Origin: a virus
Taxonomy: Duplodnaviria; Heunggongvirae; Uroviricota; Caudoviricetes
IMG/VR virus record: IMGVR_UViG_2698536485_000013
Strand: one strand, 5' to 3'
Length of the DNA stretch: 5,416 bases
A program made the translations under genes and the position numbers. How positions within the stretch are numbered: the stretch's first letter is position 1; each line of letters opens with the position of its first letter. Positions 1 to 5,416 of this stretch are shown one piece after another. Under the pieces are notes generated by a model that did not search any database, was not told the DNA's origin, and saw only the letters and a program-made list of their open reading frames with translations.

Positions 1-1
1 A

Positions 2-808
2 GTCTCCAGGATTTCCGGGGCGGTTCAACAATCAATTGCAAATTATATCAGCCCAATGGCCCAGCTATGGGAGTTAGCTTCATCACGTTACCACGATGCA
101 CCAGAAAGGGCGCTCTCCTCCTGGCGAGGGCATAGGCTTGATGTGGCACAAAGTAGAGAGAGCTATGAGGCATTTTCTAACAAAGAGCTATTGCAGGTGT
201 TGCAAGTATTTTCCGGTAATTCAGCAGAAAACAAAGAAATGATAGCTTTGTGTCTTATCGGTGCTTATACAGGTATGCGGATCAATGAGATAGCAAGTCT
301 CACAATAGACGATGTGAAAGAGATCGAAGGTGTGCTGTGTTTTGAAATCACACAGGGAAAAACGAAAGCTGCGGCACGTGTTGTGCCTGTGCATAGCCTT
401 ATCACTCCATTGGTGTTATCTCTTCGTGAAAAGCCTCACAATGGCTTTTTGTTCTATCACGCCAGCATTACAGAGCGTGCTGATGGTAAACGTTCCACGT
501 GGCACACGCAGAGATTTACAAGAGCTAAACGAAAGGCTTTAGGGGAAAAGGGAACAGAAAGGAAGGTGTTTCATTCTCTGAGACACGGAGTAGCACAGCT
601 TCTTGATCGAAATCAAATTCCAGAAGACAGGATCGCCCTTCTCCTGGGCCATACACGCGGCAATACAGAAACATTCCGCACATATAGCAAGAATGCAGCT
701 TCTCCAGTAGAGCTTAAAAAATATATTGAGCTTCTACGCTACCCTGAAATAGAGAAAGGCTTATCAATCAATAAAAAATCAAATTTAAGGCGTAAAACAA
801 CGCCATAG
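2..808 (+). CDS. int: Tyrosine-type site-specific recombinase (phage-type integrase), C-terminal catalytic portion; 5'-partial, the reading frame is open to the left window edge
   Basis: The translation carries the tyrosine-recombinase catalytic signature in the right order: box I Arg (AYTGMRINEI), a Lys-containing beta-turn (TQGKTKAAARVVPV), HxLRH (FHSLRHGVAQLL), LLGH, and a C-terminal Tyr (TETFRTYSK). The frame containing ATG 56 has no stop between position 2 and 56, and 250 aa is short for this family, so the N-terminal arm/core-binding region probably lies upstream of the window. Stop is TAG at 806-808. Confidence 0.88.
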   Translation, partial: VSRISGAVQQSIANYISPMAQLWELASSRYHDAPERALSSWRGHRLDVAQSRESYEAFSNKELLQVLQVFSGNSAENKEMIALCLIGAYTGMRINEIASLTIDDVKEIEGVLCFEITQGKTKAAARVVPVHSLITPLVLSLREKPHNGFLFYHASITERADGKRSTWHTQRFTRAKRKALGEKGTERKVFHSLRHGVAQLLDRNQIPEDRIALLLGHTRGNTETFRTYSKNAASPVELKKYIELLRYPEIEKGLSINKKSNLRRKTTP

Positions 809-815
809 ACGCAAT

Positions 816-855
816 AAAGAGGCTCCAACATAGATTGGTAGCCTCTTTTATAATT
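816..855. terminator. Putative bidirectional intrinsic terminator between convergent int and the minus-strand operon
   Basis: Seen in sequence: 816-824 AAAGAGGCT pairs with 840-848 AGCCTCTTT, and the inner 825-828 CCAA pairs with 835-838 TTGG (one bulged T at 839, 6-nt loop). On the + strand it is followed by TTTTATAATT; on the - strand the A-tract at the stem base supplies the U-run. It sits 8 nt after the int stop and about 40 nt after the 237-aa gene stop. Confidence 0.5.
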
Positions 856-889
856 ACATCGTTACAGAGCGTTTTAGAGGCGTTTACGG

Positions 890-1637: not shown

Positions 1638-3467
1638 TTACCCGCCGTTGGATTGTCCTGATAAGCTGGTTAATGTTAATGATTTCAAGAAGCTATCCCG
1701 ACTTGCTCTCGCTGTAAAATCCACATAATCGCTTAATCTTGATGTGTCTGAATTAATAGTAAGAGGAACCTCTGTTACCACTTCAAATGTAGGATTCAGA
1801 TTAAACACAGGAGATAAATTATAAGCCGGAGTTGTCATTGCAAGATTATTTAAAGCACCCTGTTTGAGATTGGTTATCGGTGCTTCGCTGACTGACATTT
1901 TTACATCTGACACAGAAGAATTATCATCGAAAAGCAATCCCTTAATCGTGTTAAAGAGAGAATGACTATTATCAGGTGTAGTTGTTGCAGTGCCAGCGCC
2001 TTTATATTGGTCAGGAACGAGATTAGAAAGATGCTGTTTCATCCCTTCATTGCTTAATGGCGGTGCATCACCTAAATTTTTCTGAATAGCATCTGTCTTA
2101 TCATCATTACGATTAAACCAGTTTACAATCTTCATAATAGCTTCAAAGAGACTTCCTACAGCTTCTCCCAGCTTCGTAAAATACGGAGTGAGATTAGAAA
2201 GGTTTTTCAAAAACTCTTCCGTTACTTTTGGATCGAGAGATTTCATAAAGCCGTCTACGAATGCTACTTGTCTTGCATCAGAAAGCTGTGAAAGCTGTCT
2301 GTTTAGTTCTCTGAATTTAACAATAGAGTCTTGCTGTGTTTCTGTTAGCCATTTTCCAGAGGCTTTTTGCTGATTAATACTTTCTTGTACATCTTTAACG
2401 GAACGTTGCCAATATTTTGACGTAAGCATCAAATCATCGCCCAGGTCTTCTAAACGTTGTCCAATTTGGGAGTCTGAAAACCCTTTTTTCATCATTCCAT
2501 TAACAGCCTTAGAAATTAATCCAGCCGGATTATCAGCAAATTTTTTAAGGTCGCTTTTGTTAATAACACCGATGTTTAGAAGTTCATTAATAGCATTATC
2601 ACCGCCTTTCCATTCAGATTTTCCGGTTTTCTTGTCTTTCACCAATTCAGCTTCACTGTAGGATTTTGCGGCACGTTCCCTAACATCTTTCATCTGATCC
2701 AGGTATTTCCTAGCCCCTTGATCACCCATCATAGAGTCAACGCCGTTTCTATAGGCCCATTCTGTAATGTTGTACATCTGGTTAACGTCTACACCGCCAA
2801 GCCTTGCACGTTGAATTAGCTCTCCTTGTGTCTCAGCATTGGCAAAACTATTAGCCATAAATTCACCGGTTTTACTAACCGCCATCACGCCAGCAGCAGC
2901 CGTAGCGCCTCCAAATAACAGAGCGCCCATAGTGGCGGAATTCCCTGATCCTCCCTTAACGGGGGCTAATTGAACTTTTCTGTTGCCATTAATCTTACGT
3001 TGTTGTTGTTGTAAGCGTTTCATCTGGCTATTCATACGTGCAAGCGAGATAGCCCCTTGCTCATATTGTTTCGCTATCTCTCTAGCCTGTGCAATAGCTT
3101 TGTATTGTTCCGCTACAGAGAGGCGGTGCATTGCACTGATAGAGCTTGACACATCAAGGAGCTTTAATTCTGCTTTCTCTTTACGTGCTGCTATTTGTTG
3201 CTGTTGCCTTGCCTGTGCTCTTGCTGCGGCAGCTTGTGCTCTTTGATTCTGTTTTTCTGTTTTGGCTTTCTGTTGAGCAATCTTATCTACTTCGCTTTGT
3301 GCTTTCTTATAGCCTTTAGTGACATTATCAAATCTTAATTTAGCTGGCTTGATGTTTTCTGCGAATTCCTTTAAGCCTGTAATAGAGTCTTTCGCTTTTT
3401 TCAAGCTGTCTTTATCTACACTAAATGTAACTGTGTTCTTAATTTTAGAAGTGTTAATTTCTAACAT
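1638..3467 (-). CDS. Hypothetical large protein, 609 aa: N-terminal Lys/Gln/Ala-rich predicted coiled coil, a Gly/Ala-rich hydrophobic segment, then a large C-terminal domain; function unknown
   Basis: ATG at 3467-3465 preceded by AAGGGGA about 8 nt upstream; stop TAA at 1640-1638. Residues ~55-165 (nt ~2970-3300) are heptad-like and charged (AQQKAKTEKQNQRAQAAAARAQARQQQQIAARKEKAELKLL, RLQQQQRKIN). Residues ~172-200 (nt ~2868-2954) read GGSGNSATMGALLFGGATAAAGVMAV. The start lies 18 nt downstream of the 66-aa gene stop. Confidence 0.8.
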   Translation of the reverse strand: MLEINTSKIKNTVTFSVDKDSLKKAKDSITGLKEFAENIKPAKLRFDNVTKGYKKAQSEVDKIAQQKAKTEKQNQRAQAAAARAQARQQQQIAARKEKAELKLLDVSSSISAMHRLSVAEQYKAIAQAREIAKQYEQGAISLARMNSQMKRLQQQQRKINGNRKVQLAPVKGGSGNSATMGALLFGGATAAAGVMAVSKTGEFMANSFANAETQGELIQRARLGGVDVNQMYNITEWAYRNGVDSMMGDQGARKYLDQMKDVRERAAKSYSEAELVKDKKTGKSEWKGGDNAINELLNIGVINKSDLKKFADNPAGLISKAVNGMMKKGFSDSQIGQRLEDLGDDLMLTSKYWQRSVKDVQESINQQKASGKWLTETQQDSIVKFRELNRQLSQLSDARQVAFVDGFMKSLDPKVTEEFLKNLSNLTPYFTKLGEAVGSLFEAIMKIVNWFNRNDDKTDAIQKNLGDAPPLSNEGMKQHLSNLVPDQYKGAGTATTTPDNSHSLFNTIKGLLFDDNSSVSDVKMSVSEAPITNLKQGALNNLAMTTPAYNLSPVFNLNPTFEVVTEVPLTINSDTSRLSDYVDFTARASRDSFLKSLTLTSLSGQSNGG

Positions 3468-3485: not shown

Positions 3486-3686
3486 TCATTTTTTACCACC
3501 TTCTTTGCTTAAGAAATGGTGTAGAGCCTGATCAATACTCTCGTTTAGTCTGAACATACGGGCTTTTACTCCTTCATATGGAACATCTAAGAGAGAACAT
3601 AGATATTTCAGATTTAACAAGCCTCTAGAATCATTAGCATCTAAATGTACGTGTACACCATTTTTTGATTTCAGAATCACTTCCAT
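3486..3686 (-). CDS. Small hypothetical protein, 66 aa, tightly linked upstream of the 609-aa gene
   Basis: ATG at 3686-3684 with GAGAGGTGA about 7 nt upstream on the minus strand; stop 18 nt before the 609-aa gene start. Confidence is lowered by the short length and lack of recognisable motifs. Confidence 0.55.
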   Translation of the reverse strand: MEVILKSKNGVHVHLDANDSRGLLNLKYLCSLLDVPYEGVKARMFRLNESIDQALHHFLSKEGGKK

Positions 3687-3772: not shown

Positions 3773-4801
3773 TTATTTAACAGTGATTTGAACGGAGAAG
3801 CCAACGCCGTGGTTTACAACCATCTGGCTATTCTCTGTAACAACGTTAACAGCATCACCACGAGAAGATTCATAGCTGTAGCTATACACCTCAGCAGGAG
3901 CGGCATTGATCAGTTCAAAGGTGCTGGAAGCAGCCCCGTAGATGTTCTGATATACATTAGAGCCTTTAGCAAACTTCGGAACCGCTACAGCGTCTGCGGT
4001 CATATGTGCAAGGTGTAGCGGATCTACCAGTTTAACAACATCAATGTTAGTTCCTGGAATAGTGAACGCTGTCACCCCCGGTAGCAGGTCACGACGCTGA
4101 TACACAACGTTCCCTTCTTCCAGTGGGCTTACATACTGGAATGCGTTTGCCATACCCGCAGAGAATCGAATTGCAGAGAAGGCTTCAGGTTTACAGAACA
4201 CAACAACACGCTCAATGGTTGCAGCCTGTTTTTGTGCCTTAGCAATCATATCCGTAGCAATCTGATCAAATTCTTTAAAAATCTTCGTGGTGTCAGTGCT
4301 GGAAGCGTTCACAGTGGCTTTCATAGCTGATACGTTAAACAGCTTGCCCCATTCGATAAGAACATCATCAGTTTTAGGCGTGTAAGTTTTACCGCTAAAC
4401 AGAGATGCAGCCAGCACGCTCTCTTTTGTACGCTGATACGCTACGTGGTGTTTAGCAACATAGTCAGCATAGATATCAGTGAGTGTTTCCTGAAAATCAG
4501 TGCCAGGCTTACGCTTGCCTTGAACATCAGAAGGACGGATCACATCTTCACGAAGAAAATACGGGATTTCAATAAGCCATTCTTTACCTTGTTCTCGCTT
4601 AGTAACGTTGTGTTCAGAAGAGAAACGAGAGGTTTCTTTGTTAAAGAGAGATTCGTTGCTTTCGACAAGCTGGGAAACAGCTACTTTATGAGAACTAACG
4701 CCCACCGGATCAGTGAAGTCGAGGGTAGAGAGCAGAAAGTTACGCGTGCTGTGTGTCTGGAAAAGCGGAGCTAAATCAACGTAATCATTACCTAGAATCA
4801 T
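3773..4801 (-). CDS. Hypothetical protein, 342 aa, second gene of the minus-strand operon; function unknown (structural versus enzymatic not resolvable from sequence)
   Basis: ATG at 4801-4799 preceded by AAAGGAA about 7 nt upstream; long clean ORF, with only a 15-nt gap to the upstream gene remnant. Followed by the terminator-like hairpin. C-terminal third is rich in beta-formers (Val/Tyr/Ser/Thr). Confidence 0.8.
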   Translation of the reverse strand: MILGNDYVDLAPLFQTHSTRNFLLSTLDFTDPVGVSSHKVAVSQLVESNESLFNKETSRFSSEHNVTKREQGKEWLIEIPYFLREDVIRPSDVQGKRKPGTDFQETLTDIYADYVAKHHVAYQRTKESVLAASLFSGKTYTPKTDDVLIEWGKLFNVSAMKATVNASSTDTTKIFKEFDQIATDMIAKAQKQAATIERVVVFCKPEAFSAIRFSAGMANAFQYVSPLEEGNVVYQRRDLLPGVTAFTIPGTNIDVVKLVDPLHLAHMTADAVAVPKFAKGSNVYQNIYGAASSTFELINAAPAEVYSYSYESSRGDAVNVVTENSQMVVNHGVGFSVQITVK

Positions 4802-4816
4802 TTATTATTCCTTTTA

Positions 4817-4998
4817 TTAAGAAGTGAAAACAGAATGGAACCCTTCAAGCTGAAAGCCTTTTTTAATTAATGCTGTTTTTGCTGCTTCACTTACAGCATT
4901 CAGGGCATCAGCTTTGATGCATACAAGCCCAGCATTGCTACGTAGCACATCTACAGGCTTGTTTTCCCCAGCCGTTACAAATTCACTCAGAACAACAT
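4817..4998 (-). pseudogene. 3' remnant (~59 codons) of the operon's 5'-proximal gene, interrupted by the IS3 insertion
   Basis: The minus-strand frame is open from the IS3 junction (4999) down to TAA at 4819-4817 and continues into IS3 sequence. The only start in the ORF track (5014) lies inside the IS3 terminal repeat, so it is fortuitous. Tight 15-nt spacing and an RBS for the next gene support a real, formerly longer gene. Confidence 0.5.
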
Positions 4999-5037
4999 TG
5001 ATCTTACCCAGCAATAGTGGACACGCGGCTAAGTGAG
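4999..5037 (+). repeat. IS3 left terminal inverted repeat (IRL), approximate extent
   Basis: Established knowledge: the IS3 terminal inverted repeats are about 39 bp and begin with 5'-TG. The exact inner boundary is not verifiable here because the right end is outside the window. Confidence 0.6.
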
Positions 5038-5063
5038 TAAACTCTCAGTCAGAGGTGACTCAC

Positions 5064-5363
5064 ATGACAAAAACAGTATCAACCAGTAAAAAACCCCGTA
5101 AACAGCATTCGCCTGAATTTCGCAGTGAAGCCCTGAAGCTTGCTGAACGCATCGGTGTTACTGCCGCAGCCCGTGAACTCAGCCTGTATGAATCACAGCG
5201 CTACAACTGGCGCAGTAAACAGCAAAATCAGCAGACGTCTTCTGAACGTGAACTGGAGATGTCTACCGAGATTGCACGTCTCAAACGCCAGCTGGCAGAA
5301 CGGGATGAAGAGCTGGCTATCCTCCAAAAGGCCGCGACATACTTCGCGAAGCGCCTGAAATGA
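5064..5363 (+). CDS. insE: IS3 transposase OrfA (helix-turn-helix DNA-binding and leucine-zipper component)
   Basis: The protein MTKTVSTSKKPRKQHSPEFRSEALKLAERIGVTAAARELSLYESQ...LKRQLAERDEELAILQKAATYFAKRLK matches IS3 OrfA as I recall it. ATG at 5064 has GAGGTGA 5 nt upstream. The ORF track's start at 5055 is an in-frame GTG and is probably not the real start. Stop TGA at 5361-5363. Confidence 0.9.
   Translation: MTKTVSTSKKPRKQHSPEFRSEALKLAERIGVTAAARELSLYESQRYNWRSKQQNQQTSSERELEMSTEIARLKRQLAERDEELAILQKAATYFAKRLK
5326..5363 (+). promoter_or_regulatory. Probable programmed -1 ribosomal frameshift region of IS3 (A-AAG slippery motif near the orfA 3' end, upstream of the orfA/orfB overlap)
   Basis: Seen in sequence: CAA AAG at 5325-5330 in the orfA frame, followed by GC-rich sequence and the ATGA overlap. 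Established knowledge: IS3-family elements make the OrfAB transposase by -1 frameshifting. The exact slip site is assigned from memory and is not verified. Confidence 0.4.
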
Positions 5364-5416
5364 AGTATGTCTTTATTGAAAAACATCAAGCTGAGTTCAG
5401 CATCAAAGCAATGTGC
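5360..5416 (+). CDS. insF: IS3 transposase OrfB (DDE catalytic component), first 19 codons only; 3'-partial at the window edge
   Basis: ATG at 5360-5362 overlaps the orfA stop (ATGA) in the -1 frame and encodes MKYVFIEKHQAEFSIKAMC, the recognisable N-terminus of IS3 OrfB. Confidence 0.85.
   Translation, partial: MKYVFIEKHQAEFSIKAMC

Follow-up and report, generated by a model that had tools for sequence, protein, structure and literature searches.

The DNA stretch analysed here (5,416 nucleotides (nt), hereafter the window) was 100% identical to positions 4105076–4110491 of NZ_CP020092.1 from Escherichia coli 13E0725 (cattle, Germany). It contained the 3′ part of a tyrosine integrase gene (int) on the forward strand, belonging to a genomic island inserted at the tRNA gene thrW, and four cargo genes (890–1603, 1638–3467, 3486–3686, and 3773–4801), all located on the complementary strand and convergent with int. 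That the cargo runs toward the integrase had been recognised in an initial annotation of the window. The analysis covered the locus to 20 kb beyond either edge of the window (L001; window at 20001–25416), and the copy of the island in E423 (L002), which is free of insertion sequences (IS), was used for comparison. Selection was estimated as dN/dS by the NG86 method among the E. coli copies of the island. The G+C content along the window ranged from 33 to 49%, well under the approximately 51% of the E. coli genome. The island was carried by approximately 4% of complete E. coli genomes.

On the forward strand, an open reading frame (ORF) without a stop extended from position 2 of the window to a TAG codon at 806–808, in agreement with the initial annotation of an integrase read from left to right and open at the left edge. 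Alignment with the intact homologue revealed that the genuine int sequence begins at position 28, equivalent to int nt 498, and that positions 1–27 belong to an IS. The region 28–808 therefore represents the 3′ 781 nt (int nt 498–1278, including the stop codon) of a 425-codon gene and encodes the complete catalytic domain together with part of the core-binding domain. The catalytic residues within the window were R at 278–280 (TGMR), HxxR at 572–583 (HSLR), H at 650–652 (LLGH), and Y at 683–685 (RTY). The N-terminal 166 codons were found at L001 18218–18715, annotated as a DUF6538 pseudogene, while the sister strain 2014C-3061 (99.9% identical) carried an uninterrupted 425-codon int. Hence the earlier statement that the 5′ end of int lies outside the window was right as to the N-terminal codons, which are indeed further left, but the chief reason for the missing end is the IS that splits the gene. 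Reading frames open at a window edge can be IS junctions.

Domain analysis of the intact 425-amino-acid (aa) homologue (E423, L002 13506–14783) using Pfam revealed DUF6538, Phage_int_SAM_5, and Phage_integrase domains. The Phage_integrase match (PF00589, E 1e-17) was above the cut-off and places the protein in the tyrosine recombinase superfamily, and the protein also matched PHROG 1 (integrase). Arm-DNA-bind_3 (DUF4102, PF13356), the domain of P4-family integrases, was not among its Pfam matches. Scanning of the element against NCBIfam produced sub-threshold Xer-like matches only, and a PDB sequence search of the element produced distant XerA- and XerC-like matches only. The dN/dS of int was 0.05–0.33.

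The sole tRNA gene within 20 kb on either side of the window, according to both the annotation and ARAGORN, was that of tRNA-Thr(CGU), thrW (L001 33071–33146, complementary strand). It corresponds to approximately 13,100 in window coordinates, about 12 kb to the right of int and about 7.7 kb beyond the right edge of the window. The terminal 19–20 nt of thrW (ACTCCTATTATCGGCACCA, then T) occurred exactly one more time in the locus, and the island was bounded by the resulting 20-nt direct repeat of the thrW 3′ end, ACTCCTATTATCGGCACCAT. In 13E0725 (L001), the two copies were located at 33071–33089, where the repeat completes thrW, and at 18056–18074 on the int side, where it has a 3-nt deletion. 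The int-side copy adjoins the host pseudogene yagP′ approximately 140 nt 5′ of the int ATG; it lies as much as about 1.9 kb to the left of the window because the 1310-bp IS sits in int. This is the attachment site (att) that the initial annotation had expected to the left of the window, 5′ of int, and its tRNA fragment and int are divergently oriented. In E423, the repeats were perfect 20-mers (L002 13344–13363 and 26543–26562) enclosing 13.2 kb, the size of the element, which reaches 15.0 kb in 13E0725 with its two IS copies. The number of matches expected by chance for such flanking repeats was 0.00–0.02.

The spacer between yagP and int was identical in 13E0725, E423, and K-12 through the repeat, after which the sequences of the element and of CP4-6, the K-12 element at this site, diverged sharply; the left edge of the element could therefore be fixed to the nucleotide. 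An empty site was predicted by joining the proA–thrW sequence to the sequence past the int-side repeat, which gave thrW/TTAAAATCAAAGAG as the predicted attB junction. Among 5426 complete E. coli genomes surveyed, the empty thrW/yagP junction was uninterrupted (579/579 nt in one piece, 99.8%) in 948. The comparison with empty sites suggested in the initial annotation was thus informative: the flanking repeats together with the exact empty junction establish the limits of the island, and the repeats of a tRNA 3′ end and the empty site identify it as a tRNA-integrated island, in keeping with the island end supposed there. The order at the locus is paoD, yagP′, att, int (rightward), cargo (leftward) and accessory genes, att, thrW, and proA. 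The yagP gene beside the attachment site (L001 17594–17932) was an N-terminally truncated LysR pseudogene in all strains viewed; the truncation is not due to the island, since empty-site genomes have the same one. On the thrW side of the E423 island, a P22-like prophage with gtrABC and a tailspike gene (L002 26544–32985) was found in tandem with it, and the shared repeat extended with further tRNA identity on the prophage side, as expected for the longer P22-type core.

The spacer between int and the cargo (809–889) contained a hairpin at 816–848, preceded by an A-tract and followed by a T-tract, the stem of which was taken from the centroid structure. Its minimum free energy had a z-score of −3.96, and none of 200 shuffled sequences folded equally well. 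ARAGORN detected no tRNA in the window, this spacer included, and the 19-nt att core had no match anywhere in the window with up to 3 mismatches allowed, hence none in 809–889. The initial description of this spacer as holding a hairpin and neither a tRNA nor a repeat was accurate, as was the view that the layout is not of the lambda type, with att 3′ of int. The hairpin is a candidate bidirectional terminator, which we infer to separate the converging transcripts of int and the cargo.

The cargo operon ends next to the spacer with a gene (890–1603) that encodes a Dit-like tail protein (PF21821, E 3e-29) homologous to gp135 of phage phi92, the 'tail tube initiator'. It had 58–61% identity to proteins of Justusliebigvirus and Phapecoctavirus (60% to phi92 gp135) and a dN/dS of 0–0.04. 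The next gene (1638–3467) encodes a 609-aa tape-measure-like protein (phrog_16051, E 9e-54) homologous to phi92 gp134, with identities of 53% in the N-terminal 66 aa and 28% across 372 aa; its dN/dS was 0.09, and the gene was frameshifted in E423. The 342-aa product of the gene at 3773–4801 is a major capsid protein of the lambda-E/HK97 class (PF03864, E 6e-14). Its alignment with phi92 gp124 extended over the full length (352 aa, 22% identity, pairwise E 1e-8), no close phage relative was present among the 50,697 phage records searched, and the dN/dS of the gene was 0.07–0.08. The Dit-like, tape-measure, and capsid genes are ordered as in phi92, and the structural genes that intervene in the phage are absent from the island. 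No terminase, portal, protease, head-tail adaptor, sheath, or tube gene was found among the element ORFs scanned with Pfam and PHROG. The phi92-like relatives of the cargo proteins are, as we understand this group, virulent myophages of 146–150 kb with no lysogenic cycle. Between the capsid and tape-measure genes lies an ORF of 66 aa (3486–3686, complementary strand) without a family match in Pfam or PHROG; a gene of 62–64 aa occupies this position in Klebsiella, Enterobacter, and Serratia. Upstream of the capsid gene, positions 4817–4998 (complementary strand) hold the 3′ part of a 120-codon gene cut by an IS3 copy and annotated as a pseudogene, as revealed by alignment with the intact gene (L002 18804–19166).

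Full-length homologues of the capsid protein (341–348 aa, 37–98% identity) were present in at least eight genera, including E. coli, Citrobacter, Klebsiella, Enterobacter, Cronobacter, Dryocola, Sodalis, and Serratia, and the compact gene set and size of the island recurred in at least five genera with full-length capsid genes. In the genera examined, the DUF6538-type integrase was the final gene and convergent on the capsid and tape-measure operon; this adjacency and orientation of int and cargo was kept in Klebsiella, Enterobacter, Citrobacter, and Serratia at 37–63% capsid identity. The tRNA gene at the far end was that of tRNA-Gly(CCC) in Klebsiella (L004, repeat of 24 nt) and Enterobacter (L022, 28 nt) and that of tRNA-Leu(CAA) in Citrobacter (L023, 41 nt), and the repeats were located approximately 70–160 nt 5′ of the int start. 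In Serratia (L007), the gene order was kept and the att repeat was not found, the locus containing no tRNA and 12-nt matches only. The position of int at the tRNA-distal end is a trait of the family.

In these four relatives, a second, short protein with a Phage_integrase domain (183–205 aa) was encoded near the tRNA-proximal end (Klebsiella L004 2968–3585, Enterobacter L022 4166–4726, Citrobacter L023 4021–4599, and Serratia L007 3138–3689), accompanied by a gene of 63–68 aa. The tRNA-proximal region of the E. coli copies contained unrelated genes, encoding a resolvase/invertase in 13E0725 (L001 31317–31856) and a 183-aa protein in E423. In Citrobacter, a P4-like satellite with an Arm-DNA-bind_3 integrase, AlpA, and a primase (L023 15337–16806) was located just past the int-side repeat of the island at the tRNA-Leu(CAA) gene leuX. 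The island integrase and the P4-like integrase diverge there from the same 41-nt repeat, and the latter (PF13356) stands beside it in the classical tRNA-to-int orientation.

The remainder of the island encodes putative replication functions. A helix-turn-helix (HTH) protein matched replication-initiator PHROGs, and its gene is referred to as rep-like. An ORF-poor stretch of 2–2.6 kb (L002 22003–24614, approximately L001 29287–31317, to the right of the window) contained four tandem 22-nt iterons (TAGCTCACTATGACCTACCCCC, L002 23231–23315) and at least six dispersed CCTGTGTAAT motifs. On these repeats, the stretch is a candidate replication origin; an Rfam scan of the element, this stretch included, produced no match. 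PADLOC-DB 2.0 was also scanned with 10 element proteins and gave no meaningful match, the one match being weak and to an HTH protein.

Directly upstream of the rep-like gene in E423 lies a gene of 55 aa, the product of which was 100% identical to muut_153 of the virulent Justusliebigvirus muut; the protein of phage inny was 100% identical to it over residues 1–53. At the nucleotide level, L002 21566–21807 and positions 3989–4230 of the phage muut locus (L021) were identical at 241 of 242 nt (99.6%). The gene occurred in no phage records other than those of muut (twice) and inny (once) among those searched. At the same position of the element, 13E0725 carried a diverged allele (67% identity), and genes of similar size occupied it in the Klebsiella and Enterobacter elements. 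Because muut and inny are the only phages searched that have the segment, and diverged or similar-sized genes occupy the same place in the elements, we infer that the 242-nt segment moved recently from the element to the phage.

From the positions of the repeats, the window segment 28–808 is very probably the integrase gene at the tRNA-distal end of a thrW-inserted element with the order yagP′, att, int (rightward), cargo (leftward), att, thrW. Integration took place by recombination inside the 20-nt core at the thrW 3′ end. With attP located 5′ of int, the int promoter and the arm sites bound by Int would overlap, and int would probably be negatively autoregulated, by analogy with ptwF-intF. 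After integration, the int promoter region would remain with int at the tRNA-distal junction, where binding of Int to the arm sites would repress the promoter, and the hairpin at 816–848 would end both convergent transcripts. In 13E0725, int is broken, so that residues 1–166 are missing from Int, and 3 nt have been lost from the int-side repeat; this copy of the element is therefore probably immobile.

The closest studied precedent for this layout is at the same site, in the CP4-6 element of K-12 (thrW...intF-ptwF-yagP), where negative autoregulation of int was demonstrated experimentally (Panis et al. 2010, PMC2951348). The two elements share thrW as the target and a yagP-side flank that is identical up to the repeat, and in both int is tRNA-distal and diverges from a tRNA-fragment repeat approximately 110–140 nt upstream. 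They differ in the integrases, which are 24% identical over 162 aa of the catalytic domain, in the tRNA identity of the repeat (more than 47 nt in K-12 against 20 nt in the island), and in the cargo, which in K-12 is unrelated and consists of 34 kb of metabolic, toxin-antitoxin, and IS genes. The low identity rules out the island integrase as an allele of IntF; thrW is therefore the target of two unrelated integrases that share one geometry. In a survey of 1273 tRNA-integrase pairs, 736 were of the STI and 438 of the OC arrangement, while SIT and OD together made up less than 8% (PMC2951348); in these terms, the island int and its tRNA fragment form an OD pair, as do ptwF and intF. The boundary itself is thus ordinary, being that of one more tRNA-integrated island.

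The initial annotation had read the locus as a classical P4-type island, with the tRNA directly to the left of int in the same orientation (tRNA-attL-int-cargo). The attachment site is indeed 5′ of int, and STI, to which more than half of the surveyed pairs belong, is the commonest tRNA-integrase arrangement (PMC2951348), but the extension to the left that had been recommended did not reveal the expected tRNA: ARAGORN found none over 20 kb on that side, where the host yagP′ and paoD are located, although repeats of a tRNA end were present at both ends of the island. Only a 20-nt tRNA fragment, divergently oriented, stands beside int, thrW is at the other end, and the integrase carries DUF6538 without the Arm-DNA-bind_3 domain of the P4 type. 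The position of thrW and the empty-site junction refute this layout at the locus, and we regard it as practically untenable; an attachment site upstream of int does not imply a tRNA gene beside int. Equally, a lambda-type layout or a junction within 809–889, in which int and the phage-like genes would be unrelated neighbours in a tandem array, is highly improbable. The convergent orientation could suggest two units, and thrW does host tandem arrays, as in E423, where the P22-like prophage is beside the element, with a like adjacency of the P4-like satellite and the element in Citrobacter. Against this, the core search of the window was negative, the repeats enclose int and cargo together, and the adjacency and orientation of the two persist across four further genera at the divergence given above.

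As to the nature of the island, the sequence data most likely point to a replicative, phage-dependent element, either a satellite or an anti-phage island, aimed at phi92-like virulent myophages. This is suggested by the homologies to phi92, the rep-like gene, the iterons, the purifying selection, and the near-identity of the 242-nt segment with muut. Several observations weigh against the proposed mechanism and nature. All matches in an IMG/VR scan were prophage calls from isolate genomes and none came from virome particles, and individual copies are decaying, with IS copies in int and in the 120-codon gene of 13E0725 and a tape-measure frameshift in E423. A scan for sigma-70-like promoters called none on the int strand of the att–int spacer, and an arm-site search in the reconstructed attP found one 10-nt inverted pair only (GCGTTTGTAA / TTACAAACGC); by our estimate approximately 0.1 such pairs are expected by chance, so that the pair may be a chance match and is not relied on. 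A simple terminator scan missed the hairpin at 816–848, the stem of which is bulged. The decay could also be read as that of a prophage remnant in which the capsid, tape-measure, and Dit-like genes no longer serve a function and the integrase end is fossil, a reading that agrees with the lack of terminase, portal, sheath, and tube genes, with the two IS insertions and the E423 frameshift, and with the cryptic remnant CP4-6 at the same site in K-12. This explanation appears unlikely, as the same compact gene set and size with full-length capsid genes is kept in at least five genera, the structural homologues have dN/dS values of 0–0.09, the rep-like gene and iterons are retained, and the only phage relatives are virulent phages of 146–150 kb without a lysogenic cycle, no full-size prophage with this capsid having been found in the searches.

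Comparison with described satellites and islands revealed partial likeness to several of them. With P4-type satellites, the island shares an att 5′ of int, a small size (approximately 13 kb), integration at a tRNA gene, and a replication gene, but its int and the tRNA gene stand at opposite ends of the island, and the integrase has DUF6538 and SAM_5 domains instead of Arm-DNA-bind_3. The core set of P4-like satellites comprises psu, delta, sid, alpA, epsilon, alpha, and integrase (SatelliteFinder, PMC10085698). Of this set only the integrase is present in the island: Pfam and PHROG gave no match among the scanned ORFs to AlpA or to a primase (alpha) of the P4 type, and none of these ORFs was annotated as psu, delta, sid, or epsilon, no search by those names having been made. 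The PICI model includes int, a regulator, pri-rep, and terS, to which the cfPICI model adds portal, adaptors, terL, and HNH, and tail genes are forbidden in both (PMC10085698). Like a cfPICI, the island is small and integrative, with its own major capsid protein, integrase, and replication functions; unlike a cfPICI, it has no portal, protease, head-tail adaptor or connector, terS, terL, or HNH gene, its phage relatives are virulent rather than temperate, and it carries the tape-measure and Dit-like tail genes that both models forbid.

A further likeness, by description and not by sequence homology, is to PLE of Vibrio cholerae and to PICMI, which are chromosomal islands tied to a strictly virulent myophage, as the present island would be if it depends on a helper phage. 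Those islands encode no capsid or tape-measure homologues of their own. ICP1 has acquired PLE-derived sequence, to which the 242-nt segment of muut may be likened. On sequence content, the island fits none of the definitions of P4-like satellites, PICI, cfPICI, or PLE. Literature searches on thrW, satellites, and capsids, on DUF6538, and on satellites of phi92 or Justusliebigvirus returned nothing relevant, and no E. coli satellite of phi92-like phages turned up in them. Neither these searches nor the four satellite families of SatelliteFinder include a small Enterobacterales island whose capsid, tape-measure, and tail-initiator genes are conserved, under selection, and homologous to those of virulent 146–150-kb coliphages; the family is apparently undescribed.

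More tentatively, the island may belong to an undescribed family of approximately 13-kb Enterobacterales satellites or anti-phage islands that exploit or hinder virulent Stephanstirmvirinae (phi92-like) myophages, a possibility that we hold to be somewhat less than even. Members of such a family would integrate by means of a DUF6538-type integrase encoded at the tRNA-distal end and replicate from an iteron origin with their own initiator. Their own divergent homologues of the capsid, the tape measure, and, in some members, the tail-tube initiator could build satellite-sized particles or poison phage assembly, and the 242-nt segment, 99.6% identical in muut and inny, would be a trace of an ongoing arms race. 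Because phi92-like phages see wide use in phage-therapy collections, an island able to parasitise or block them would be of practical interest.

Two insertion sequences lie at the edges of the window. Positions 1–27 (complementary strand) are the terminal inverted repeat of an IS3-family element of 1310 bp (L001 18718–20027, ends TGAACCGCCCCGG...) inserted after int nt 500, with its transposase annotated at L001 18760–19973; by length and ends, we take it to resemble IS629. Alignment with the intact E423 int revealed the 3-bp target-site duplication ACA (28–30, int nt 498–500), the interrupted sequence reading CACAACA/TGAACC...GGTTCA/ACAATCAATTGC against the intact CACAACAATCAATTGC. This insertion is recent, because the 99.9% identical sister 2014C-3061 has an uninterrupted gene. 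At the right edge, positions 4999–5416 (forward strand) were assigned by annotation and alignment to the left end of an IS3 copy running off the window, which includes the inverted repeat TGATCTTACCCAGC... and orfA and has the target duplication CAT; its ORF at 5055–5363 matched HTH_Tnp_1 (Pfam). The full copy spans L001 24999–26257, interrupting the 120-codon gene that precedes the capsid gene, and predates the insertion in int, as the sister strains (H2–H7) have IS3 at the same place.

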